Shown: positions 28,141-64,000, counted from the first letter of the stretch. The stretch: DNA of 64,000 bases from Lytechinus pictus (GCF_037042905.1 NC_087250.1:13022001-13086000); one strand, 5' to 3'. Made by a program: numbers and translations. Notes: generated from the sequence alone by a model not told the origin.

Positions 28141-28856
28141 CTGATATATTTACAAAACAATAGGAAAATTCTCTTTAATTTTGTGCAAATATTTTTTGTA
28201 TTCATGGTGGAGGTTTCAATAAATTTCTTTAATTAAAAGTATTATGTTTCATGTTTGCATTTGTTAAAAGTGTTTCTCAATGGGAACTTTTATTCATTTC
28301 ATTTATTTATTTTTCCATAAAATACAAAGCTCTGGACAATTACCTCAAAAGACTTTGGCTTGCAAAACAGGGATGCCCTTAAACAAAATATACAACATCA
28401 AAACTACAAAAAGGAGCTGTAGAATCAATATGCAGCTATTTTTTTATATTTTGATTTTAATGCATATTTGTTTTAAGATGCAAAAGCATTCCATGTACAT
28501 TTAAAGGTAAAGTTCACACAGAAAATAGTTGAATTGAATCAGAGAAAAATCAAAGAAACATTTAGTGTTGAAAATTTCATCCAAACAGGATATAAAATAA
28601 GAAACTTATGACATTTTAAAGGTTCGCATATTTTTCACAAAACAGTTATGTAACTCAATGACAGGCAAATGAGAGTCAATTTCTGTCACTCACATTTCTG
28701 AAGTAATCTATATTTAAATTTTACCGATATCAAACTAGGGCAACCTGAATGAACCATGAAATATTAAAGCAATGGCAACTCCACACGATCAGAAAGGAAA
28801 CGAAAAACCTTGTTTCACATCAGAATGAAGAGAAAATTAGAATATTTCTATTTCAT

Positions 28857-28894
<38 letters not shown>

Positions 28895-29104
28895 AAAAAA
28901 TAGTAACATCATTTGCTCTCATTTTGTGAAAGAGCGAAATTTTAAAATGTCATTTATTTATTTATTTCACTTCCGATTTGAATGAAATATTCAGTGTTAT
29001 GCTTGTATGAAATTTATCTTTTTTATTCGAATCAACTTTTTATTAGTGTGGACTTGGACTTTGTAGATAAAGAAATGCCTTGAATTAACAGTACAGTCTT
29101 GATT

Positions 29105-30560: not shown

Positions 30561-32721
30561 TATGTTTTCATACTCCATGAACAACTTGCTTGACACATTC
30601 AATGGTTATTTTATAAACAAGGTGGTTCAAGAACCACGAGTCTCGCCTGATATCGCGATCGATAGAATATGCAATGTGATCTTTTGACCTATATATTATC
30701 ATCCTCACTGGCACACGTGTGGTATTAACCAATGGTTCTTTGTACCAAGTGTAAACACAATTGATGCAAAAATGAAGAAATAAGAGCAATTTGAACAAAA
30801 ACACGACATTTTGACCCCCAGATGACCTTTAACCCCATCACTCTCATGGACACATATGCGGTATTACCCAAGGATCATATGTACCAAGTGTCAACATAAT
30901 TGATGAAGAAATAAAGAAATAAGAGCAAGTTGAACACTAGAAACTTGTACATTATCATTTGACCTTTTGACCCCTATATGACCTTTGACCCCATCACCCT
31001 CAAGAACACACATGTATTATTACCCTAGGATCATATGTACCAGTGTCAACATAATTTGAGGCAAAATAAATAAGTGAGTTGAAAAAAAATTTAAGGTCAA
31101 GTCCACCCCAGGAAAATGTTGATTTGAATAAATAAAGAAAAATCAAATTAGCATAACACTGAAAATTTCATCAAAATCGGACTATATAAAATAAGAAAGT
31201 TATGACACCAAAAGTTTTCGCTTTTTTCACTTTGACAAAACATTTATATCCACAACTCAATTCTATGCAAATGAAACAGTCGATGATGTCCCTCACTATT
31301 TCTTTTTTTTATATCGTTTGAATTATAAATACAATATTTCATTTTTTACAGATTTTCCAATAAGTACCAACTTGACTGATCCATATGGTATTAAACAATG
31401 CTAATTCCACATGTTCAGGGAGGAATGAACCTTTTTTACACTCGACAATGAGGAGAAAATTATAATATTTCATATTATACAGATATTGACTGATGGGGTG
31501 TGTAACATTGTACCGCCGTATTTATCACAATGGAAAATATAAATCCTTCAGGCGGTCCAAATTATTATTTTTTTTACACACCCTATCAGTCAATATCTTT
31601 TATATTAGATAGCTTTGAATGATGAAGATACATGTAGATCTAAAGTAATTAGGTCTATGATGAGTGCAGTAGATAAATTGCAGCTGTACTGTTTGTTGGT
31701 GGTGGTCCTGATCTTTCTGTTGTCGAGCCAGGTCCAGGACCAATTCTAACTAGATCTAGATCTAATATTTCGTTAGCACTAACCTACGTTGACGTTAGCA
31801 AGATTTAACGTTAGATTTCTCTAACTTTTAGACTCTAGCCTAGATCTAACACGTTAAAAAGTTAGACCTAACTTATAGATCTGTAGGCCTAGAGGTCTAG
31901 CCCTAAATCTGAATTTACTTACCCAAAGTAATTTGATCGTCCAAAAGCTAATCTTACTCCCCATTGCTCATCAGACATCACCATATGTCATAAATCTTTG
32001 ACGTTAGACCAAATCCAAAACTAAACGTTCTAAAACTAGACTGAGCTTATCTTCATTCTCTATCTGCTATACAGTATACTCCGTTGATTCCATCTTATCC
32101 AGAAATTGTTAAATAAATCTCCAGAATTTCAGAAATGACGGTTACTCCTGTCTATACACAAACCTAGGCTCCATTTTAGTAACTGAAGAAGGCCTAACGT
32201 TAGATCTAACGTTAAACCTAGCTTACTCGTAATACACTGTAGGCCCCTGATCCTACGTCGTCGTCGGACTCACCTTCCGCGGTCCGGTTCGAAAATTTTG
32301 ATTGTTTCCAACTGATATCTAGTGTTGATCGATTGCAAACGATCGCTATTTTAGTCCAACATACATTATGTTATTGGTAATATTAGATAGCCAAGCGCGA
32401 TTGGTCAATTGCACGTCACGTGAAATGATCGAAATCAGTGTATTTTCCCAACCGGTCCACCTTCGATGGATATATTGACCAGCTGGTCCATGAATATATT
32501 TTTATGCGTGTATGGCGTCCTCTCATGGATTAGATGTTACCAATTACACATAAATAACATATGTGGGACTATAAAGTAGCGATCGTTTGCAATCGATCAA
32601 AATCAATATTGCAATATTTTTTTTGGGCCGAGTACCGCGTAATTTAAAAGCGGTGTAGTATAGTGCAGTGAGTCCGGTCGAGGTCCAGTCCCAGTTTAAT
32701 TCAACAATACTTCAATACGGA

Positions 32722-33625
32722 GGCTAGATTTGTGCTAATGAGCAATGAGGAATTAGACCAGCTTTTGGACAATAAGGATTCTAATTCTACTAAAAATGTT
32801 GTGAAACAGGCGATAGATATATTCATTTTCTATTGTTAGGCAAAGTCTCTTGACTTTGGAAAGTGGAGACGGAATACTCGGAGCGCGAGCAAGAGTTATG
32901 CGAGTGCATTAGATCATTCTACGTACGCAGAGGTGAAATGGCCATGTTACGCAAAGAGTTCCATGGTCTCCAGAGGCACTTTCTGAAAACAAAGGCAATT
33001 GACATTGTGAACAGTGTTATTAGACGTGCAAACGACATGTCTGCTGCAGTTCTCCATAAACTGAAAGCTGAAGGAAAGGGTTTAATAACACATAAGGATT
33101 CTATTAGTAAGGACGACTTAAAAAAAAATGACTTCGCGAGCCTTGGACCGTTCTACTCCGAGAGGTCTTCAGAATGCTGTGTTTGTGAATCTCATGTTAC
33201 ACCTGTGTAACAGAGGCAGGGAGAATCTTAAGTATCTAAGGACAGACGACTCCGCTATTGCTACATATTCTGGCAACAGGAGATATGTTTATCTTGCGAA
33301 GGATAAGCTGACTAAAAGTCACAGAGGAGACAAAGATGATGACTCAAGGAGCCAATAAGGTCGGATGTATGAGGAGAAGGATGAAAATTGTCCCGTCAAG
33401 TCGTTCTGTGAATGTGTTTCGCATCTGAATCGTGATTTTCCGTATTTTTGGCAACGGCCAAAATCAAGTGCGCCTCAAGAGACCGTCAAACTTGGAAGCG
33501 GTCCAGGACCAGGGACAGTAGAAGAAGACTAACAGAATGTGCCATGGTATGATCATCAGGTTGTTGGTAAGAATGCATTGGGGAACAACATTAAAATCAT
33601 TAGCATTGAAGCTAACACGTCAAGG
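32722..33625 (+). pseudogene. Crypton DUF3504-type tyrosine recombinase, disrupted
   Basis: ARFVLMSNEELDQLLDNKDSNSTK; TPRGLQNAVFVNLMLHLCNRGRENL; RMYEE..NCPVKSF; FWQRPK; WYDHQVVGKNALG. Stops and frameshifts; truncated by a tandem-repeat insert at ~33625 before the expected HSLR motif. Confidence 0.82.
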
Positions 33626-34104
33626 CCCTGCTACAACCGATAATGTCGCACCAACGCATTATGTCGCAGATTGCGACATATGCCAATCTGAGCGTCCGAC
33701 GCATTTTATAATGTCGCAGTCAACGCATATAATGTCGTAGTTTTTCTAACGCATAACGTCACATGTCGCAACGCATAATGTCGCAGCAAATTTCTAACGC
33801 ATAACGTCACATGTCGCAACGCATAATGTCACAGCGGTATTTTCTTCAGGACTCGAGTTACATTTAAGATATATGCTTTCACTAAGTATTTTGAGACACG
33901 AGATAGCTAGAGAATTAAGGTGAGAGCAGTCTTATACATTACTCTCCATTTGAAGGACACAAACGACAAATGAGCTTATGCTTGTCAGAGAAATGTCAGT
34001 CGAAGGTTAGGCTTTCTAGTCCAAGTAGTACAAGGTCTAAAGTTAGTAATTTGTCCTGGTCCTGGATCTGGTTCAGCAAAAGAAAGATCAGGACCACCAT
34101 GTAT

Positions 34105-34746
34105 GATGGGGTGTCCAAACTTCGCGCACTTTTCAAAAATATTCATCAGGCTTAAATTTTCTCACAAAATATTCATAATTTATACAAAACCAATTCAAGA
34201 AATAGTTACCACATTGACGGCAAGATCATAAACTATAAAATCATGGACGAAAATGTAAAGTAGGTCAAGGGGATTCGCCGGTATTGCGATCTCAAAATTC
34301 TATTCCGATCGGCGAATGCGCGCTGTGCTGGAAAACCGTTCAGAAAAAACGTGACCTAACTTCGCGGACCAGTTTTTGTGGACATTTAAACAAAAACTCA
34401 AGCTAAAAAAGTGAAATATTTATATCAGATTGATGGCAAAATGCTATAGAATCGGTTAGTACCACATTTAACTTACATTTTTGATGATTTCTGCTTGCAA
34501 AATGGTGATATCGTGATGCTTGTTGAGAATATCAGATTTCTTCAAAACGGGCGCTAACGGTGACAAATTTGCCGATCTTTTGCCAATATTTTTATGAATA
34601 CTGAACTCATCCTAAAGAAAGTTTCACCAAAGGGTAATTTTAGGTCGCTTTTCACGTTGATGATGTCAGATTTTAAGGATATTGTCTAGTTTTTTAGATA
34701 ATGACCGTCCGCGAAGTATGGACACGCGCGAAGTTTGGACTCACTG
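34105..34746. mobile_element. Non-autonomous TIR element nested in the Crypton
   Basis: Inverted GTCCAAACTTCGCGC ends. Confidence 0.55.
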
Positions 34747-37188
34747 CCATACAGTCAGCAGGCCACTACCTAGTCCTGTTTCAACTCATCCATTCACCAC
34801 CCGAATCTGCACCTGATGTTATGGCTCAGCCTCGGGATCTACACAGATCCACATTGGGTTCTGGACCAAGTCCTGGTTCGACAACAGAGATATCAGCCTC
34901 AGGAAAACCTTGTACAATCAGTAGGCCGCCGTCTAGTCCTGTTATATCTCATCCCCAATTTTGTACATCTAATGTTAGGGCTCAGAATCAACATGGATCT
35001 CGGTCAGCCCTGTGGCCTGGACCGGGACCGGACTCACAGTCCTAACCTCAAATGAACTTTGTATCAAACAAATTGGATGTGGACCACAAAAGGGTCGTAC
35101 AGTACCATACTTCCGTCAGTGTACTGTAAACATAATAAACAAGTAGACAATACTGCATCGTACCCTATGTAAATATGTTGCATTCGTATTTGTTGTTATT
35201 ACGTTGAACAGTTGGAACAGAATTTTATTGGAATGTAGACTACCACTAGGACTGTTTTCCTTATTTTTGCTTTTGGCTTTATCTCTGTTGGAATTGGAAT
35301 TTTTGCAAGAAATGGATCTGGTGAGTTACATTCTATATTTTGTTCTAAGGCCTATGTAGATCTAGATTAATCTAGGCCTAGGTCTAGTTCTCTACAAATT
35401 AGAGTCTAGATAAAGAATCTCCATCATATCAGGCTATCTAATGTAAAAGATATTGACCGATTGGGTGTGTAAAATAAAAATTCTTTGGACCGCCTAAAGG
35501 ATTTACATTTTCCCTCGTGATCATATTTTCCAGAAGCGCGCAGCGCTTCTGGAAAATATAACCCCTCAGGAAAATATAAATCCGGCGGTCCAAAGAATGT
35601 TTATATTACACACCCCATCAATTGATATCTGTATAATATCTAATCCACAAGAGGACGCCATACACGTAGAAAAATATATTCTTGGACCGGCTGGTCAATA
35701 TATTCATCGAAGGTGGACCGGCTTCGAAAATACATTGATTTCGATCATATCGCGTGACGAGCATGGACCAATTGCGCTTGGCTATCTTATAATAATGAAA
35801 CACAAAAGAAATAGTGTTGACGTCATCAATCACCTCATTTCCATACAGACCAGGATGTGCATATATACTGTTTTGTGAAATTAAGCGAAACTTGAAAATG
35901 TAAAATATTCTTATTTCACATCCGATTTTGCTGAAATTTTCAGCGTTACGCTTGTTGGATTTTTTCTTTTCATTAAAATCAACTTTTTGTTGGGGTGGAC
36001 TTGTCCTTTAACATTTTTGGAACAGACATGACCTCACTCCATTTGACCTTTTGATCCCTAGATGACCTTAGACCCATCACCCTCATGGTTGAACAAAAAC
36101 TTTTTCGAACAGACCAACGGACTAACAGACCAACAGGAAAGGTGGTCTAAGCATGGACCTTATTAGGGTCCCTGCTAGGTCTCTACCGAACTTCGTTCAG
36201 GTGGGACAAAAATTGCAGCATTAAATAAATAGAATACGAGAAAGTTTGATAAAAAGTTACAAATTCCTTATATCACCGTTTCAATTTCTCAAGATCAGTC
36301 ATAAGTTACAGTGACCACTACGTCATGTACTTCGTTCAGGCGAGACAAATATTGCAGCATTAATAGATATAATGACGATAAATTCTGACAAATTTCACAT
36401 TCTCTTGACTTATTTCAAATACAATTTAAATCATACATTTGGAAAAATGACCCTTCTCAAGTTTCTCGATGAATAAGCTTGCATGTTGTATGTTTTATGA
36501 TATTTTTTATTTTGTTTATTCAAATTCTTTACTTCTTTGCTGAATTGGTTGAATTTGAAATTTTTATGATTCTTACAATCCAAATAATTGGATTTTCTTG
36601 TAATATTAGTAATAATTATAAAGAAAGGAGTAGCCATGATAGGCCAACGCTTTTTTTCTACTCCCTCAAATCCCGTTCATTACCTATTGTTTTTTTGTCG
36701 ATTTTCTTTTACAATCGAAATTGTTTTTTTTTCCTTTATTATGGAATTGATTTCGTCTCGATGTATTGTATCTTCTTCTTTATTAGATGTAAAAAAATGA
36801 ATTTGATTTTGAAATAAGTTAAAAAACCATTAGAAACCATTCTCATTTCTTTCGAGAAAATTATATATAAATGATTTTAAAAAATCACGATACGTGACTG
36901 TGAACCTGCTCGCGTGTGCCATCACAAATGAAGAAATTAGAATTATGACACTTTTAATCTTTGATGGATTTTCCTCAAACCTTGACCACTATTTATTATT
37001 ATTATTTTTCTCCTATTTCTACAATAAACTTTTGGTCAGGGTGAACTTCCCCATATAATACCTTCCCAAAGGACGTCGATAGGCCATAGCTAGGCACACT
37101 GCTGTATAACTTGGAAAGCGGGTTGAAATCTCGACCAATCGTAAAGTTTTCCTGTCGTTCGGGAACTTCTCCTGTCTCACAAACGTTG

Positions 37189-41377: not shown

Positions 41378-44300
41378 CCTCTCACACACACACACACACA
41401 TATATATATATACATATATATAATGCCTGTAACAGCGAAACAGAAGTAAAATAATATCTGGGGAAAAAAAGGTTTCTGACAAAATATTTATTTTCTTTAT
41501 ATCACAAATTGCTGTCATAGACCTCTGTATAGTTTATTATGAATAAAAGAATGGGGAAAATAAATTTCACAAGAGCGAGCACTAAAATGCGCGTTTGTGA
41601 TCTGTGAGTGACGTACTGTCTGAAATCATAATTGCTAACGTCATGTACGGTATATGTGGCAAATGCATTATTTTGATTATCCAAACGGCTGCCATACGTC
41701 CCCAACGAATATAAACAATTTGAGCGAGGACAAATAACTTGTGTTGTATGCGTGAAATATTGCCTAAAATCATGATTCCTAATGAAATAAAGCGTTTAAC
41801 TGTTTTGTGAAAAATAAGCATAACTTAAAAATATCATAACTTTTTTATTTTATATCCGATTTCGATGAAATTTGCAGTGTTGTGTTTGTTTAATTTTTCT
41901 CTATCGATTAAAATCAACAATTTTCTGGGGTGGACTTGACCTTTAAATATTGTTTAAAAAAAATGGATGTAGAGAACAATGGTAGGCGTAGCTTAAATCA
42001 AGGTTCCCTAGAGCTATCTACCCTTTGGAAAAATTGGTGATGCCGAAAAAATGTCTCCGCCGGGAATCGAACCCGGGCCCCCAGCTTTGAACACCGGTGC
42101 CTTATATATAATATTTATATATAACACAACCGTACAAGTCAGCAAGGAAAGGGGTTGTTGAGTTCAACCGGCATGCAACGATTACCCACGTTCACGTCAC
42201 GTAATCACGTCACATTATCACGTCACGTTTTTAGTACAGACTTTCTTTTAAAAAAATCCCCCTAAAAATGAAACAGCGAAATTTAGTACACCATTTTATT
42301 GTAAAACCTTAATACTTTACAGGTATGTATTGAAAATAAAGCCGAGGCTGGAATGAACTGATAAAAAAAAAAATGATTTGATTCTAACTTGCGTCCCAAG
42401 GAAAAGGGGGGGGGGTCGCAAATTCAAAGTGGATTTAGGAATGTAGACCGGTACAACGCAAATTAACCAATAGTGAATCGATTATTAAAGCCACAAAGAT
42501 TCAATTTTCTTTCGTTTAGTACAAAAATGCTAGAATTTACCGAAACGCAAATAACAGGATAAGATAGGAGATTAAGCTGCGTCATAATAAAGGGTGAAAC
42601 TTTCGGACTTTTAATATCGCACACATACAGTGCGATCCTTATGTGGTTGCATTTCGGTGAGTAACGTCATGATTAGTCTAACAAGCGCTTGCAATTCTAA
42701 AAATGTTGGGGAAAGTGCGTAAAAACTCGTGTCATGTATGTGCAAAACTGCGACTTCTCGTGGTTTACCGGCGTACAAATTAACAAATTGAAGACCTTAC
42801 ACCTCATAGATTAGGGGGACTTTTTTTACGAAAGTCCTCAAAACATGACGTGATAAAGTGACGTGAACGTGAGTAATGCTTGCAAGCCAGTTTAATCCCC
42901 CTCTTTTGTAATTTAAGGATACCCAAGGGGAATGGGCTAAACACCGAAAGGAATGAATACAGCAATGGCATTTCCTTGTTTGGGGACAAAAGCAGTGTCT
43001 ACCAAACCACTTTATTTTGGAAGGGCGATAGCGTAGGCTACGTAAACTACGATGACGTCATGAAAGGGAAATGGTGACTTACCAGCTACGAGCCAGACCA
43101 GATACCGAAGCCAAGTGACCTTTCTGAGTTTGAGCATGAGAACAACATTGCACACAATACTGAGCCACGGCAACCAAGGGACCAGAGGAACCTGCAAGGA
43201 AAGTGTTAAGTGCCCAGTTAGAGCTCATCAAAATAATAGACCTTTACTTTAGCATATGACATCATAATCTCATTGCGCCCTCCCTTAGAGGCTATAGAAA
43301 TACGCGTACACGGAGCTGTCAGAGATGCGCCAGCTGCAGATCACCAAAGCGTGCAAGGCAATGGCTTCATCCTTTAAGATCACGGCACCATGACGTCATT
43401 GCAAAATGTATATAGACACATGTGATGTAGACTAGTCTTGATACTCTGATTCATAATGTTTTTCGAAAAGATATTGTGACATTAATCTTTTACTTGCTAC
43501 TACTTTTTGTTCCTTGCAGGAAAATATAAATATTTGTAGATGAAATCTATTATCCCTTAAGTTTTTTTACCCGGCTAAATATTTGTGTTATAAAATGTTG
43601 ATCAGTTTTTCCTAAAAGAAAACCTATAAACACCAAATCCTATTAAAGGTCAAGTCCATCACCAAAACCAGTTGATTTCAATAGACGAGGAAAAAAATGC
43701 AAAGCCGAAATAAGTGAAGTGTGACTTCTAAACATGCATACAATTGAAGGTAATTTTCACGTTCTTTTTACATGGCTGTGCAAAATATTTTGCTCAAGCC
43801 CCCATTTACCCCCTCCCTCGGTTGCGTGGCCCCTGTGAAGTCATGGTGGGGTGGGATTGCTTACCCTGTAGTACTGTTTTGTATCTTCATTCTGATAGTG
43901 AAGCGTGATGATGAGGAAAGTCCCGAGTGCACATACGCCAAAAAGGAGGAGTAAAATAATCGCCCACCATTCTCCTTTTGCAATCTCCAGGGAAGCATGT
44001 TCTATTACGGCAATGCTACCAAACAGAAATAGAATCGAGAAGAGTAGACTGGCCTTAACAGCTACCCCTGACTCGAATCGTAGGAGCTCGCGTAGTAGAG
44101 GGGTTGAACGAAACTGATGCTTCAGAGTTCCAGGAGTTTGTATGGACGTGGTGTCCAGGAGAGCGGTGCTATCATTGGCTGGTCCGCTGTTGCTATTGGT
44201 TGGAGCTTGTCCTAGGGATGACAATTCCACCCCATCCATGGTACTTGCCCTCAAGTCTTCTGGTCCGTATCGGAGAAAGATGATTGCACCTGCTACGAAG

Positions 44301-45499: not shown

Positions 45500-48400
45500 T
45501 CCGGATACAGGTCTGCACGCAAATGAGTTAGACTTACAAATATTTATCGATGATGAGTCTTACGAATCTCCATATAGTGGGCAACTTTCTAATTCGTAAG
45601 GCGGCTAGCGGTATTGGCGAATCATCCAAAGAAATGCTGTCCCGAACAACGAATCTCAAAAATTTCTTTCCGTTGAGTTCCTTCGACTGATCGCGGGCAG
45701 GATGAAGATTTGACGTAGGAAATTGTGTGGAGCAAGTCACCATGCATGGTACGCCTTTATTCGCTGTCAAAGTCCTATAATGGGTGCCCTGGAAGGAAAA
45801 TAATGGGGAAAAACAATAAAAACTACCTTCATGGCTCGCTATAAAAAGCCTCACAAAATATCGCCAACAAAATTTTAGGAATACACGTACTCCTTATGCG
45901 TAGTGTCATAGCACCTTCCCCCGGAGGCTATATGAAAACGCACTCGTCAGATATGCGCCATCTGCATCAACGTACGCAAGGCAATACTGCTGACCCCTAA
46001 GACCCCCTAACTAAATTGCCATGATGTACTACCCTATCAAGTGAACATAAAATTGGGTATAAAATAAATCTACCTGTTTTAAATTTTTTTTTCTATATAT
46101 TAAAAAAAAAAACATCATTGTGGACCTAACCCCTTTTGCATGTAAACTGAAATGAATCCAATCTCTTTTGATTAAAATAGAGATTTTTCTTTGCCGCTTT
46201 CAATCACGTTTTCATTTGAATTTCAAATTGTCTTTGGTATCATCAGAGTGACTAAAGATTTAGAGGTTTAGAGACGGAAAACAGTAAAATTTATGAAAAA
46301 TTGACCTAACCCCTTTTGACAAATGAGTTCTTCAGAAGAATTTGGTTGCAAAAGGAGTTAGGTCCACTCCAATAAAATAATTTTTTTAATTCTCCCATAT
46401 TGCAATATTCTTAATATGCGAAACTTAATTTTCATGATACCCTACCATGAGAACATAAAGTTGGGTATAAGAGAAATCTACCTCTCTAAACTGAAATGGA
46501 CCTAACCCCTTTTGAAAAAAAAATTGATTTTTCTTTGCCATTTTAGTTCACTTTTTAATAGGAATTTCAACTTTTCTTTGGTATCATCTTATAGAGCTAA
46601 TAACAATCTATACATTGAGACATAAAAATCAAATTTAATGAATAATGGACCTAACCCATTTTGCAAGTGAGCTCTTCATGTGTCAAAAGTCTGTTTTAAA
46701 CCGATTCACGTGATATTTAGCTAACACATCGGTCTTGGGGTGATACTGGGTAAGACATATTTTTCACTGTGTTGGAAACTGTTGCCATGGTAGCGGCGAT
46801 CATCGGGGGTAATACTCACCTTCAGTGAAAGTTCTAGTTGTTTTGTTTTTTATTGCTTGAATTGCACAATAGTTCATTTTTTAACCTATTTGACCTTAAG
46901 GACCAACTTGATTGAATCACAAAATATTAAAAGAAATGTAATTCCACGTGTTTGGGGAGGAAGAAAACTCTCTTTTACATGACAATAAGGAGTGCAAAAT
47001 ACAAAATAAATAGTAAGTGGATGATGTCATCCTGCTCCCACTTCCATACCCACCTGGGGAGTGTTTCATCAACATTTATGTCCGACAAGTTGTCAGAACT
47101 GACAACTTTCCCCGATTCTGATTGGCTGAGAGGTACTGTTGCTATGGTAACTGTCGGATAAAACAGGACTTGTCGGATGAAATCCTTTCATGAAACGCTC
47201 CCCTGGATGTGAATATAACTGTTTGTAAACATTGAGCGAAAATTAGAAATTCCATAAATGTCTTATTTTCATCCAACTTTGATGAAATTTCTATGTTATG
47301 CTTGTTTTATTTTTTTTTCGCTTTTTATTTCAATCAACTTTTGTTAGGGTGGACTTGTCCTTTAACTCTGCTTGTCTTGTTCGACTACAGCAGACCCGAG
47401 TTCGACTCAAGTCACATTCTATTCACAAGACACACAGAGTGCATTAAATCTATTGTTCACACACACATACGCAACAGCGATATGAACATCGCATTGTACT
47501 GTGTACACACAAAGCTATTATTTACAATAAATCACTCAACTAGAGAGTAGTCCATGCAAATCCCTTCGTTAGGTTGAACCTTAAAAATGAATGTGGCTTA
47601 TATAGGAGTGATTCTGACTGTGGCGGGCAAAAAATTAAACGATTGAATTCAGATTCGTTTTTTCTTATGCTGCAGCCCCCCCCCCCCCAAAAAAAAAAAA
47701 AGAAGATAATATTCAGTGTGTCCCGTCATGCAACATTGATATTCCAAAGGGCAGCATTTTCATTATTCATTATCATGAATTTGTTTAGTCTGTCATATAT
47801 TGTCTACATATTCCGATCATTGTGTTTGAGGAGGGCGTCTCCGAGTATACATGGTGCATCATAGGGCAGACCCCATTCACTCACGTGTTAAATCATAGCA
47901 GACTGCTCATCAAAAAATAAATCCCACGATAGATTTTGCTTTAATTTACTCAAATTAGTCACAATGAACATTACAACAAAACTAGATATGTTAACCAGGT
48001 ACTTGTCCAGCTCAAAAAAGTTAAATGGCCTGAAATAAGACTAACCATAATTTCGGTCAATTCACTGTAAGAAAATCTGGAACTGCATTTTGGATAATGA
48101 GAATTAAAATGAAATACAAAATTGCAGTCTAGCCTCCCCAAAGGACCTAATTATGAAAGAGTATGAAGATGACATTATTTCTATCATTTATGTTTTGATA
48201 TAAAAACATTTTGTCTTTTGTTATGAATTATTCTAATCAATAAAGTCATGTGATCTTTACTTACGCCTGTCCGGCATGCTTTGAGTGCAGATGAATTACT
48301 CTGTGTGCCCTATAGATACTGCGTCTTTGTCCTCTCAAAACGCACACAATGCAATTAGATGCGACGCGATTTTTTTTTTAATAAATCGCATTTTACATGA

Positions 48401-50704: not shown

Positions 50705-51303
50705 AGGGGTACTCCGGTCTGAAAATATTTATATCTAATTAATATAGTACAATTTACAAAGCAAAATGCTGAAAACTTCATCAAAATCGGAAAATAAATA
50801 ACGAAGTTATTGAATTTTTAAGTTTAGCAATATTTTGGGAAAATATTTATATGCACATCATCATGATCATTAGATGGGCTGATGATGTCACATCCACACT
50901 TTTCCTTTCTTATGTTATTACATGAAATCATAATTGTTTCATATTTTGTCATAAATGTGTGAGTAATGTATATCCTTTATAATGAAATAAGTTGCAGCAA
51001 TGAATATCCAACGCACTTTATCAGTTCTCAATCCACTTTTTTTCAGTTTTTGGTAGAAAAATTTGAATAAACCTAATTTCATATAATAAAATACAAAAGT
51101 ACAAGTGGGATATGACATCATCAATTTGTTCATTGGATATTCATAAAGACATGCCTAGAACTGTTTCACCGGAATAATGCAAATCATTAAATTTTCATAA
51201 CTTTGTTATTCCTTGTCCGATTTTGACCAAATTTTCAGTGTTTTGTTTGTGTGATTTTTCTTTATATGTTTGAACCTGAATACTTTCAGCCCGGAGCATC
51301 CCT
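50705..51303. mobile_element. Kolobok-like TTAA MITE (related subfamily)
   Basis: TTAA-AGGGGTACTCCGG...CCGGAGCATCCCT-TTAA. Confidence 0.75.
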
Positions 51304-61764: not shown

Positions 61765-61767
61765 TAA

Positions 61768-62361
61768 AGGACAAGTCCACCCCAACAAAAAGTTGATTTG
61801 AATAAAAAGAGAAAAATCCAACAAGCATAACACTGAAAATTTCATCAAAATCGGATGTAAAATAAGAAAGTTATGACATGTTAAAGTTTCGCTAAATTTT
61901 CACAAAACAGTTATATGCATATCCTGGTTGGTATGCAAATGAGGAGACTGATGACGTCATCCACTTACTGTTTCTTTTGTATTTTATTATATGAAATATG
62001 AAATATTCTAATTTTCTCCTTATTGTCAAGTGTTACAACGATTAATTCCTCCCTGATCATGTGGAATTAGCGTTATTGAATCCTAAATGGTTCAGTCAAG
62101 TTGGTCCTTATTGTCAAATCTGTAAAAATGAAATATTGTATTATTCAAACAATACAAAAACAAAGGAAATAGTGAGTGATGGACATCATCGACTGACTCA
62201 CCAAGTTGTGCATTATCACTGTTTAGTGAAAAATAAGCGAAACTTTAAAATGTCATAACTTTCTTATTTTACATCCGATTTTGATGAAATTTTCAGCACT
62301 ATGCTAGTTTGATTTTTCTCTATTTATTCGAGTCAGCATTTTCCTGGGGTGGACTTGACCT
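61768..62361. mobile_element. Intact Kolobok-like TTAA MITE, ~594 bp
   Basis: AGGACAAGTCCACCCC...GGGGTGGACTTGACCT-TTAA with long inverted subtermini; other copies near 28501-29085, 41490-41946 and 46880-47365. Confidence 0.85.
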
Positions 62362-64000
62362 TTAACAATAATGAATAGAAAGGGGGGGGGGGTATAAACG
62401 AGAGAGAGAGAGAGAGAGAGAGAAGGGGGAGGCCGGTGTATGGGTCTAACAATATTTTTTTTCCTGAGTCGGGGGGGGGGGGGGTAGCATCAATGGTCCC
62501 ATTCCTGATTTTGTGGGTGATCTTTCTTTACTCTGCAATTCTTAATTGCAATTGAGGAAACTTAAACAACCCCCTTCCGGATATTTGTGAAAATTCGTCA
62601 GAAACAATTATGTTTTAAAAGTTTATGATGAGGATGGGGGGGGGGAGGGGCACTCTTCGCAGACCCTAAAATAAGGTAGGAGGAGACAGATTTCCAAATT
62701 TTCCAAAATTTGAACTTTATCATAATAAGTATAATTATGAGCCTCACTGCCATTTAATAGAAAAAAAACGAATATATCACGGTAAATCACTTTCATTGAA
62801 CAACAAGTGGACAAAATGACAAAGTAATGATTCAAATGAGGATGCAAGTTACTTAACCATACAAAACTATTTATTGCAAAAATACATTACAGTTCGTGAC
62901 AAAGTACAAGTTTGCCGATAGATGGCAGTATATAACAATGGTTCGTATGACAAACTGATCTCTCGCACTCAATTGCAATTACGTAGTAAAACAGCCAATG
63001 ACGGTGTTATTTAAAACCACGTTCTCTATTCGTAATGATTTCGAGCATCATGAATCAATTATTAAAAAGCGATGTTGACATGCGGAAAACTTCATTCATT
63101 CATTCATGGCGGTGGGGGGGGGGCAAATAATATTAAATTCTACACATAATACATTTGGCTCTCTTCCCAAAGGAGAATGCCCTTGACATATTTATCATCC
63201 TATATAATTTGTCAATCGGCAAACAATTTTTCCCCTTTTGCCGTTGATCATAACTACCCCCTACCTCATAAAACAAAATGACGGAGACCTATGAACGTCG
63301 TTGATTGCGTATGAAGATAATACACTAATATCATGTTTCACGATTTTCCAACTTTTATGACAAATCGCAAAGCCTGGTGTAGCATCGTTTATTCATTCTT
63401 AAATGCGTCCGATTATAGTAATATAACACTTAATATTTTACCATAAATTTTATTTATATTACAAAGATTAATTACCAAGAAAAAGAATAAGTATTCACAA
63501 AAAAGAAAATAGAAAACAAATGCTTAATAATATTCAAATTCGAAAGAATATTAAACATCATATATTCAAATATGGCAAGAAGTTAACCTGTCAAGAAATA
63601 AATATTGCTACATATTCAATATACATATGGTACAGTCATATAAACGCCCTCGATAAACTAACCGATAGTATACCAGACGAAAATTTATTCGGTCTGTTTT
63701 AACAGCCGGTGCAACTTGGGTATTAACCATTAATACTTCACTTTGTGACGTCGACTTCGGCCTCTGATGCACAAGCCGCATCCCATACCGGCTTTGAAGC
63801 CACCTCATTCCTGCAATATGGATGGTGATGCACCAATACGCCGAAAAAGAATGAGGCCGCCTTGAGATATTCCGAACTTTTCGCATTTCCTAAGAGGAAC
63901 TCACACCTCACACCACTTCCTTTGAAAATGCAATTAAAATCACAATGGAGAGTTGAGAGGCTTTTGTCGAAAATTAGTGGACTGGGGCAGATGATCATCC

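Follow-up and report, generated by a model that had tools for sequence, protein, structure and literature searches.

A very probable nesting of two Crypton-type elements behind an apparently shuffled locus of Lytechinus pictus

Features of the locus

The analysed window is a 64,000-nt stretch of Lytechinus pictus sequence NC_087250.1, in which a first-pass annotation had distinguished the modules A', X', C', B, C, a recombinase, X, A and B'. All of these are present within a few bases of the positions assigned to them. By self-alignment, A' (31467-31629) and A (35417-35644) are inverted counterparts with 85-91% identity, and B (32378-32539) matches B' (35634-35794), also inverted, with 88% over 162 nt, in agreement with the earlier description of B as recurring inverted after A. 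C' (32325-32381) is an inverted match to C (32543-32600) with 85%; the likeness of the proposed C' module to C is detectable over about 58 nt only. The features are listed below, where el1 denotes the outer, short element and el2 the inner, long one.

31079..31476: host MITE-like repeat, left part; 80% identical to an uninterrupted paralogue (62365-61995), with further copies in the window
31472..31477, minus strand: outer (3') end of el1, ATATTA, reverse complement of the family 3'-terminal TAATAT; its ATAT overlaps the target
31478..31613, minus strand: A' of el1, 3' palindrome with arms 31481-31505 and 31574-31598, centre deleted
31602-31613: inverted copy of the 5' terminus, in A' of el1
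31614..32324, minus strand: X', internal region of the short non-autonomous el1
32325..32383, minus strand: C' of el1, ending in TAATAT (32378-32383), the target-side copy of the duplicated hexamer
32384..35633, plus strand: el2, long autonomous-type copy, TAGATAGCC...ATCTGTA, 3.25 kb, inside el1
32384..32539, plus strand: B, 5' terminal module of the family, carrying the GATTGGTCA and CGTCACGTGA motifs
32540..32715, plus strand: C, leader between B and the ORF
32716..33629, plus strand: recombinase pseudogene, N-terminal two thirds, with stops and frameshifts
33630..33913: foreign 284-bp stretch with 48-bp tandem repeats
33914..34103, plus strand: rest of the recombinase core, SSL(I/K)HYS tyrosine motif kept
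34104..34749: unrelated 646-bp MITE in el2, inserted at TA; TIR ...GTCCAAACTTCGCGC
34750..35431, plus strand: el2, sequence coding for the C-terminal tail, and 3' region
35432..35444, plus strand: GGCTATCTAATGT, inverted copy of the 5' terminus ATATTAGATAGCC, immediately 5' of the A palindrome
35448..35630, plus strand: A of el2, 183-bp 3' palindrome
35634..35639, plus strand: TAATAT, element-side hexamer copy, direct repeat of 32378-32383
35640..35794, minus strand: B' of el1 (5' end), with ATAATA at the host join
35792..36018: host MITE-like repeat, right part; 86% identical to 61990-61765
61765..62367, minus strand: uninterrupted host-repeat paralogue (empty site)

The arms of A' remain well paired, 31481-31505 matching 31598-31574 at 96%, and X' retains collinear remnants of the recombinase gene (31936-31974 resembles 32735-32773, and 31700-31742 resembles 34057-34099). 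Except at two insertions, el2 aligns collinearly with L067 and L068, both of them complete long copies; for the 646-bp MITE, L067 has the empty form and L055 carries another copy of the MITE.

The five hexamers named as junctions are found as described: ATATTA at 31472, TAATAT at 32378, ATGTTA at 32534, TAATAT at 35634 and ATAATA at 35789. Four of them lie at true element/target joins, where Cryptons would be expected to have their short direct repeats, whereas ATGTTA at 32534 is ordinary internal sequence, present at the B-C transition of nearly all other family copies. The hexamers are common in themselves, with 110 occurrences of TAATAT and ATATTA together in the 64-kb window (63% A+T); their evidential weight comes solely from their placement at alignment breakpoints. 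The TATCT-N8-AGATA palindromic sites at about 31594-31611 and 35435-35452 were confirmed.

Family layout and genomic copies

As read from the aligned copies, the family has one layout: (i) a 5' end ATAT|TAGATAGCC opening module B of about 155 bp; (ii) module C; (iii) the recombinase gene or X; (iv) GGCTATCTAATAT, an inverted copy of the 5' terminus; and (v) the palindrome A of about 185 bp, closing with GTA|TAATAT. The long form, with the recombinase gene, measures about 2.4 kb, and the commoner, short non-autonomous form, with a degenerate X, about 1.3 kb. The short form keeps the same ends as the long form, about 220 bp at the 5' side (B and the start of C) and about 260 bp at the 3' side; its X is a strongly diverged collinear remnant and no clean deletion.

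The B-start 20-mer has 102 genome matches with up to three mismatches, against 9 for a control, which puts the family at about 100 copies. At least 42 genomic matches to B were recovered, and copy counts are lower bounds, as 40 of the 103 B candidates were scored. Among the matches listed, 36 of the 37 distinct 3' ends of other B copies are followed by C on the same strand, and the remaining one belongs to the truncated copy L002. Likewise among the matches listed, GGCTATCTAAT (up to two mismatches) stands immediately upstream of A in 31 of 35 distinct copies; three of the remaining four are deletion variants of the family flank, and the flank of L058 is unrelated. The palindrome has a single orientation relative to its flank in the copies examined. 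The complete long copies L067 and L068 show the order B-C-YR-A, and about 20 short copies the order B-C-X-A. One fixed order in other copies, which the annotation had named as evidence against its own reading, is what these copies show. Nor do A and B behave as independent MITEs with their own target-site duplications, given that C follows B in 36 of 37 cases and that an unrelated flank precedes A in one of 35 (L058). On the sequence of these copies, both modules belong to one family, with A as its 3' end and B as its 5' end.

The recombinase gene

The recombinase ORF of el2 had been called a pseudogene, and it does contain stops and frameshifts and has lost a catalytic segment: the foreign 284-bp stretch stands in place of about 85 bp in which other copies have the coding sequence for the H-x-x-R and SGH motifs. 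Searched fragment by fragment against Pfam, the window copy gave no match. The assignment to a Crypton-type tyrosine-recombinase family is upheld by Pfam matches of ORFs from the family and a paralogue. The 260-aa ORF of L004 (L004:2375-3154), 79% identical to the window copy with three TAA stops within the match, reaches Phage_integrase (PF00589) with E = 4e-6, its 27.1 bits just attaining the gathering score, and its motifs HCIRAT and SGHKSESSLKHY are visible; its N-terminal part matches QRICH1 at 1.3e-5, where the 25.6 bits fall short of the cut-off (30.8). An intact paralogue of 467 aa, with 63% identity in the compared region, scores 42 bits for DUF3504 (cut-off 29.7). Copies with at least 79% identity have a best open frame of 308 aa. 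In the complete long copies (about 2.4 kb), neither a reverse transcriptase nor a second transposase was found, the recombinase frames being the sole long ORFs, and intact relatives of 2.0-2.3 kb have a single ORF of 464-478 aa.

Nesting of el2 in el1

The locus very probably comprises two copies of a single Crypton-type tyrosine-recombinase family, one nested in the other; the modules appear scrambled because a long copy is nested in an older short copy, and no DNA-flipping switch is called for. el2 (32384-35633, plus strand) lies inside el1 (minus strand; 31472-32383 and 35640-35794), at the B/C boundary of el1 and between direct TAATAT repeats. In element orientation, the B half of el1 ends ...GGATTAGATATTA and the C half begins ATATTACCAAT; nine other copies read unbroken across this boundary as GGATTAGA(T/C)GTTAC... 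After removal of 32384-35639 from el1, single HSPs cross the join (base 161) in comparisons with all five other short copies tried, such as el1 14-851 with L020, or 10-224 at 88% with L008. The 24-mers over the C'|B and A|B' joins each occur once in the 812-Mb genome (up to two mismatches), and the nesting is a one-off event. The outer and inner copies are independent, with 12-15% divergence. The earlier proposal that an autonomous-type copy is joined to a deleted one thus holds in the form of a long el2 within a short el1.

In the very probable order of events, the short el1 first entered the host MITE-like repeat on the minus strand at an ATAT-containing site. Later, the long el2 integrated on the plus strand at the B/C boundary of el1, which read ATATTA there (ATGTTA in other copies). 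This integration left TAATAT as a direct repeat on either side, and the modules now seem to follow one another as A' X' C' | B C YR X A | B'. el2 subsequently decayed, with its stops and frameshifts, the exchange of the H-x-x-R segment for the unrelated 284-bp repeat and the insertion of the 646-bp MITE.

A transposon nested in a relative can thus mimic shuffled modules, which is as such an ordinary finding.

Ends, core sequence and target site

ATAT stands 5' of TAGATAGCC in 29 of 35 outer left ends; at the outer right ends, TAATAT follows CTGTA in 16 of 34 and 32 of 34 begin with TA. On the right, ATAT is preceded by two constant bases that belong to the element; on the left, the two preceding bases vary. 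Two empty sites contain a single core copy, namely the canonical B/C boundary and the host paralogue. In the latter, ATATAATA occurs once (reverse complement of 61950-62040), as the annotation had noted for the uninterrupted repeat, the core of the outer join (ATAT or ATA-) being uncertain by one base as the paralogue is just 80-86% identical. By analogy with the Crypton literature, the element would be excised as a circle in which the end of A is joined to the start of B, and would integrate by recombination across the short ATAT/TAATAT microhomology. Two loci in the genome have exact head-to-tail A|B junctions, which is how the closure of a circle would be expected to read. Among about 45 copies examined, self-association comprises one nesting, one head-to-head abutment (L006) and two to three tandems (L026, L061, L014); this seems too frequent for random insertion, so that some insertion-site preference beyond ATAT is likely.

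Alternative explanations

The annotation had interpreted the locus as shufflon-like, with several att-like sites that let a tyrosine recombinase flip or reorder A, B and C. Such a reading could draw on the coincidence of the hexamers at 31472, 32378, 35634 and 35789 with alignment breakpoints, on the inverted terminal-motif copies flanking the A palindrome and on self-associated copies being commoner than random insertion predicts, but the other copies, fixed in order and orientation, give it no support. The one arrangement holds for 36 of the 37 B ends and for 31 (plus three variants) of the 35 A copies, A, which alone is flanked by the inverted terminal motifs, is not found flipped relative to its flank, and ATGTTA at 32534 is ordinary internal sequence. 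Moreover, the inner segment lies between TAATAT repeats in direct and not inverted orientation, which is the geometry of integration and excision and argues against inversion; one excision restores two intact elements, as no single inversion does. The R64-type shufflon combines a tyrosine recombinase, Rci, with repeated short sites; unlike it, the present family has a fixed order, direct repeats around the inner segment and, at this locus, a dead recombinase gene without the H-x-x-R segment, with stops and a MITE insertion. It is through this dead gene and the fixed family order that present-day flipping at the locus appears excluded. Invertible modules are therefore considered extremely unlikely.

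Mis-assembly of repeats, or ectopic homologous recombination between dispersed copies, is very unlikely as a source of the structure. The region is repeat-dense, and public contigs over the locus are short and repeat-collapsed; however, one hexamer, present in two direct copies, marks both breakpoints, and taking out the inner copy yields a canonical short element, base for base. The 12-15% divergence between outer and inner copies is too great for collapsed identical repeats, and the outer pair of ends fits the empty paralogous site. It is equally hard to credit that the short elements, or A or B alone, are DDE-mobilised MITEs with the recombinase gene as a passenger, the 13-nt inverted repeat ATATTAGATAGCC ... 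GGCTATCTAATAT serving as TIR and ATAT as target-site duplication. An inverted repeat of the 5' terminus does lie near the 3' end in four families, and ATAT is found at both ends, but the inverted copy is not terminal, as the palindrome of about 185 bp and a GTATAATAT tail lie outside it in every copy. The four families differ in their termini, and each has a tyrosine-recombinase ORF only. As the bases preceding ATAT are constant on the right and variable on the left, a microhomology crossover fits better than a staggered-cut duplication. Nested integration of el2 into el1 remains the preferred explanation.

Comparison with known systems

Like CryptonA elements as presented in PMC3212892, the family, which may belong to that group, has a single tyrosine-recombinase ORF with DUF3504/QRICH1-like and Phage_integrase signatures, a length of about 2.4 kb and no reverse transcriptase. 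As in that group, named relatives come from sea urchins and other marine invertebrates. According to the main survey of Cryptons (Kojima & Jurka 2011, PMC3212892), fungal and oomycete Cryptons have terminal direct repeats of 4-6 bp, whereas the animal elements yielded no terminal repeats of either direct or inverted type. The present family shares with Cryptons, as characterized there, short terminal direct repeats matching the target (PMC3212892). It departs from that description of animal elements in its 3' palindrome, inverted 5' copy and ATAT joins, the absence of terminal repeats being a descriptive trait in that survey and no criterion of the CryptonA group (PMC3212892). As in the entries for the non-autonomous CryptonI-1N1_RPro and CryptonA-1N1/1N2_OL (PMC3212892), the short form keeps both ends of the long form; in contrast to those entries, its X is a diverged collinear remnant.

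The Goodwin microhomology model of Crypton and Starship integration, as outlined in the Glomhopper paper (PMC13465315), likewise has a flanking repeat of which the empty site holds one copy and the filled site two, one of them borne by the element; in the present family this is TAATAT, near-constant at the right end. In place of the circle of that outline, the present family shows genomic head-to-tail A|B junctions only. DIRS1-like elements, in the account of the same paper (PMC13465315), combine inverted terminal repeats with an internal complementary region. The likeness lies in the encoded tyrosine recombinase and in an internal sequence near the 3' end complementary to the terminus; the differences from that account are that the family, at 2.0-2.4 kb, has no reverse transcriptase, RNase H, methyltransferase or long inverted terminal repeats (PMC13465315).

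A candidate attachment structure

What the locus offers is an animal Crypton family in which both ends are defined to the base, together with a non-autonomous form and an ATAT/TAATAT joining sequence. The DNA fold of the el2 palindrome A has -61.2 kcal/mol with z = -13.7, and the three palindromes folded have z of -12 to -16. In four of five Crypton families checked in the genome, with recombinases 47-63% identical to that of the window family, a 3' palindrome of 175-200 bp is preceded by an inverted copy of the family's own first 9-14 bases. The pairs of 5' end and inverted copy are as follows:

Window family: ATATTAGATAGCC and GGCTATCTAATAT, 13/13
Second family: ATATTACATGAC and GTCATTGTAATAT, 12/13 with one indel
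Third family: TTATATACC and GGCATATAA, 8/9
Fourth family: TTTTATAAAATAGC and GCTATTTTATAAAA, 14/14

We tentatively suggest, at somewhat less than even chances, that animal Cryptons have a conserved attachment structure, not described before, of which A and B form the two sides, and that the recombinase possibly acts on a folded or cruciform, Holliday-junction-like substrate. In a circular form, the 5' terminus and the subterminal inverted copy would lie on either side of the 3' palindrome and lengthen it to a palindrome of about 220 bp, and the crossover would take place at its base, within GTA|TAATAT|TAG. Integron attC sites and the attP of XerCD/CTX would be analogies to such a substrate.

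To our knowledge, the circle-and-integrate mechanism of Cryptons has never been demonstrated. If the palindrome with the inverted 5' copy is a recombination site, the young intact sister families would give a defined enzyme and a defined substrate, with which this mechanism would become testable. Three young sister families may still be active, as their copies are 98-99.7% identical and have open reading frames of 447-467 aa. The B motifs GATTGGTCA and CGTCACGTGA are common to four other families.

Nested organization of the two Crypton copies

The analysed block very probably consists of a dead long copy nested in an older short copy, both belonging to one Crypton family. The following elements and modules have been distinguished:

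31472-32383 and 35640-35794, minus strand: el1, the short non-autonomous outer copy
32384-35633, plus strand: el2, the long inner copy
32378-32539: B, the 5' end of the family
32543-32600: part of C (the leader after B) that is matched by C'
35417-35644: A, containing the 3' palindrome
31467-31629: A', the el1 counterpart of A
35634-35794: B', the el1 counterpart of B
32325-32381: C', the el1 counterpart of C
61765-62367: uninterrupted paralogue of the host repeat

Self-comparison of 31000-36300 recovered the modules A, B and C with the inverted partners described in the first-pass annotation: A' is inverted relative to A at 85-91% identity, B' relative to B at 88% over 162 nt, and C' corresponds over about 58 nt to the inverse of C. 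Internal palindromes are present in both A and A', and the DNA fold of the A region reached -61.2 kcal/mol (z = -13.7). The five hexamers (at 31472, 32378, 32534, 35634 and 35789) and the two TATCT-N8-AGATA sites also read as claimed. TAATAT and ATATTA occur 110 times in the window, at 63% A+T; these hexamers are common words and their weight comes only from their positions.

The block interrupts a MITE-like host repeat, whose uninterrupted form (a paralogue, not an allele) carries a single ATATAATA at the point matching the insertion site. The host repeat is palindromic (31078-31181 against 35921-36023), and its further copies lie at 28501-29062, 41799-41958, 47202-47366, 50721-51265 and 61765-62367.

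The first-pass annotation had proposed a shufflon-like element, with modules inverted or permuted at a 6-bp core. The hexamers do stand at the joins; the rearrangement itself was not supported, in view of the fixed family order, the orientation of the repeats and the absence of any fitting inversion. In nine other copies, read in element orientation, ...GGATTAGA(T/C)GTTAC... is unbroken across the B/C boundary, whereas the B' half in the window ends ...GGATTAGATATTA and then continues into the A end, and the C' half starts ATATTACCAAT..., preceded by the B start. Thus, el1 has been split at one hexamer, which now flanks el2 on both sides. Integration leaves direct repeats, while inversion needs inverted sites; TAATAT at 32378 and 35634 forms direct repeats on the plus strand that bracket el2, and two intact elements cannot be restored from this order by any single inversion. 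The ATGTTA at 32534, previously listed as a further recombination core, turned out to be the equivalent, left intact in el2, of the site hit in el1, the only copy seen with ATATTA at the B/C boundary. An empty allele of el1, lacking el2, would read ...GGATTAGATATTACCAAT..., and after removal of 32384-35639 single HSPs spanned the join in all five short copies tried. The divergence between B and B' (12%) and between A and A' (9-15%) marks them as separate old copies. The composite as a transposing unit was rejected: each of the C'/B and A/B' junctions has a single genomic occurrence when up to 2 mismatches are allowed, so it has not been propagated as such. The best-matching public runs contained at most 0.14 of the words; Logan contigs from four runs, short and repeat-collapsed, represent paralogous forms only (e.g. 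31476>35793 and 34101>34750) and are uninformative on orientation at this locus.

The readings of A and B as invertible cassettes and of A as a separately mobile MITE have been weighed against the other copies in the 812 Mb assembly, in which all copy counts are lower bounds. At least 42 genomic matches to B were found (40 of 103 candidates scored), and for the 20-mer at the B start, 102 occurrences were counted with 3 mismatches or fewer, compared to 9 for the reversed control. Arrangements were counted at the loci surrounding B and A matches (L002-L060, minus the window's own L023 and L031). C is found downstream of B, in the same orientation, at 36 of 37 distinct B 3' ends, the single exception (L002) being truncated. 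Directly upstream of A, GGCTATCTAAT is present (up to 2 mismatches) in 31 of 35 distinct copies; three others have small deletions of the same flank, and one (L058) has an unrelated flank. Since this arrangement is constant, A and B are neither invertible cassettes nor independent MITEs; instead, they represent the two termini of a single transposon family, A the 3' and B the 5' end. The family exists in two size classes with common ends: (i) a long form of about 2.4 kb, B-C-recombinase ORF-A, complete in loci L067 and L068; (ii) a short form of about 1.3 kb, B-C-X-A, in which the degenerate interior X holds collinear gene remnants only.

Long copies with shared flanks, spaced tens of kb apart, were also observed at C8 17.46-17.93 Mb (L038-L041, L043, L046) and C4 23.88-24.07 Mb (L069-L072, L077). 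These clusters arose when the DNA around the copies was duplicated, segmentally or in tandem, and not by transposition.

Recombinase and decay of the inner copy

The recombinase frames in the window are broken by stops and frameshifts, and a Pfam search with their ORF fragments gave no significant family; classification is based on better-preserved copies. The Crypton identification made earlier was upheld. Locus L004 (2375-3154) encodes a 260-aa open frame containing ...YTNHCIRATTITTL...SGHKSESSLKHYS..., which matches Phage_integrase (E = 4e-6; 27.1 bits, equal to the gathering score); QRICH1 is matched by the N-terminal frame at 1.3e-5, with a score below the cut-off, and the ORF had no match at E up to 1 among sequences of solved structures. 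A paralogue, 63% identical, has an intact ORF of 467 aa with matches to DUF3504 (42 bits, against a cut-off of 29.7), to QRICH1 and to Phage_integrase. The named relatives of this paralogue come from marine invertebrates, sea urchins among them, and are either uncharacterised or labelled 'ZMYM2-like'. At least 120 matches to the window family's recombinase are present in the genome; in those with 79% identity or more, open frames reach at most 308 aa. The domain signature matches CryptonA-type elements as given by Kojima and Jurka (PMC3212892); the assignment to this group, made from domains, is putative.

In el2, compared to L067, a segment of about 85 bp that encodes HCIRATTITTLDEQGFEARHIMTVSGHK has given way to 284 bp of unrelated sequence (33630-33913), and a 646-bp MITE is inserted at TA in the recombinase tail (34104-34749). 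Part of the replacement recurs in L036 (89%), which indicates that it belongs to another dispersed repeat. It contains two tandem units of 45-48 bp, rich in CGCATAA(T/C)GTC. The terminal inverted repeats of the MITE end in ...GTCCAAACTTCGCGC, and TA is apparently duplicated; L067 represents the empty form and L055 contains another copy. As read from its sequence, the local el2 recombinase cannot be active.

Element ends and self-association

Of the 35 distinct outer left ends, 29 have ATAT immediately before TAGATAGCC, with variable bases at the two positions preceding ATAT. Among the outer right ends, 16 of 34 have TAATAT after ...ATCTGTA, most others are one-base variants, and 32 of 34 begin with TA. 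These statistics indicate that the two ends overlap by ATAT. The core is present once in each of two empty sites, the host paralogue and the canonical B/C boundary. Together, the single core and the ATAT/TAATAT ends match the short direct repeats of Cryptons (PMC3212892), which the Glomhopper paper (PMC13465315) regards as microhomology with the target and not as true duplications.

The expected circle junction, ...ATATCTGTATAATAT/TAGATAGCC..., was found in the genome as head-to-tail joins at L026/L062 (short and short) and L061/L074 (short and long); two more matches to the pattern, at 2 mismatches, are not full family members. L014 resembles a tandem in which a deletion covers the join, and two copies abut head to head in L006. 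This self-association exceeds random insertion for about 100 copies in 812 Mb, suggesting that end sequences of the family itself are to some extent preferred. Inspection by eye of the el1 target (TTGGTAATAT/CTAATCC) against the inferred circle junction (CTGTATAATAT/TAGATAGCC) gave no convincing half-site similarity beyond the hexamer. The abutting 5' ends in L006 (1440-1500; ...GGCTATCTGTCTTGCATATCTAATAAATTATATTAGATAGCC...) form a new palindrome.

End architecture of sister families

Terminal repeats were not detected in animal Cryptons by Kojima and Jurka (PMC3212892); in contrast, the present family has a 3' palindrome and a subterminal inverted copy of its 5' end. The words 'palindrome' and 'hairpin' do not occur in the available text of that paper or of the Glomhopper paper (PMC13465315), and a search of published papers returned no description of palindromic Crypton ends.

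Five families, with boundaries set from pairs of copies 98-99.7% identical, have been compared. Four of them (the window family, L075/L076/L078, L081/L082 and L083/L084) have three common features: (i) GATTGGTCA and a CGTCAC(G/A)TGA-like motif at the 5' end; (ii) a family-specific 3' palindrome of 175-200 bp; (iii) an inverted copy of the element's first 9-14 bases immediately preceding the palindrome. The two motifs of the first feature are presumably promoter elements. Three of the palindromes were folded and are strong (z = -13.7, -12.4 and -16.3), that of L083 being known from its inverted-repeat arms.

Pairing of the 5' end with its inverted copy in the four families (5' end; inverted copy; matching bases)
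Pair 1: ATATTAGATAGCC; GGCTATCTAATAT; 13/13
Pair 2: ATATTACATGAC; GTCATTGTAATAT; 12/13, one indel
Pair 3: TTATATACC; GGCATATAA; 8/9
Pair 4: TTTTATAAAATAGC; GCTATTTTATAAAA; 14/14

That the pairing is maintained in spite of sequence change is an argument for a function. In a circle, the palindrome would be lengthened by the 5' end, and the observed crossover would lie at the palindrome base. The TATCT-N8-AGATA sequence, located in the window family at the boundary of inverted copy and palindrome, was not accepted as a core site of the classic arm-spacer-arm type: it is absent from the L075 family, whose 5' terminus differs, and is thus regarded as a side effect of the palindrome lying next to the inverted terminal copy.

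The common 1.9 kb of the fifth family, L079/L080, contains neither palindrome nor inverted copy and terminates in an A-rich end; this family may represent a retrocopy or have another construction. Its unit (L079:2076-3970 and L080) is 99.5% identical between copies and encodes a 478-aa recombinase ORF.

The exact 3'-terminal 20-mer of the window family also terminates other Crypton families of the genome. With 3 mismatches or fewer allowed, it has 891 matches genome-wide (control 219), of which many read TAGGCAATATCTGTATAATA, which indicates that other abundant families share the terminal motif. The three sister families (L075:675-2695, L081:1831-4149 and L083:1120-3460) comprise copies 98-99.7% identical with open frames of 447-467 aa; by sequence, they look young and possibly active.
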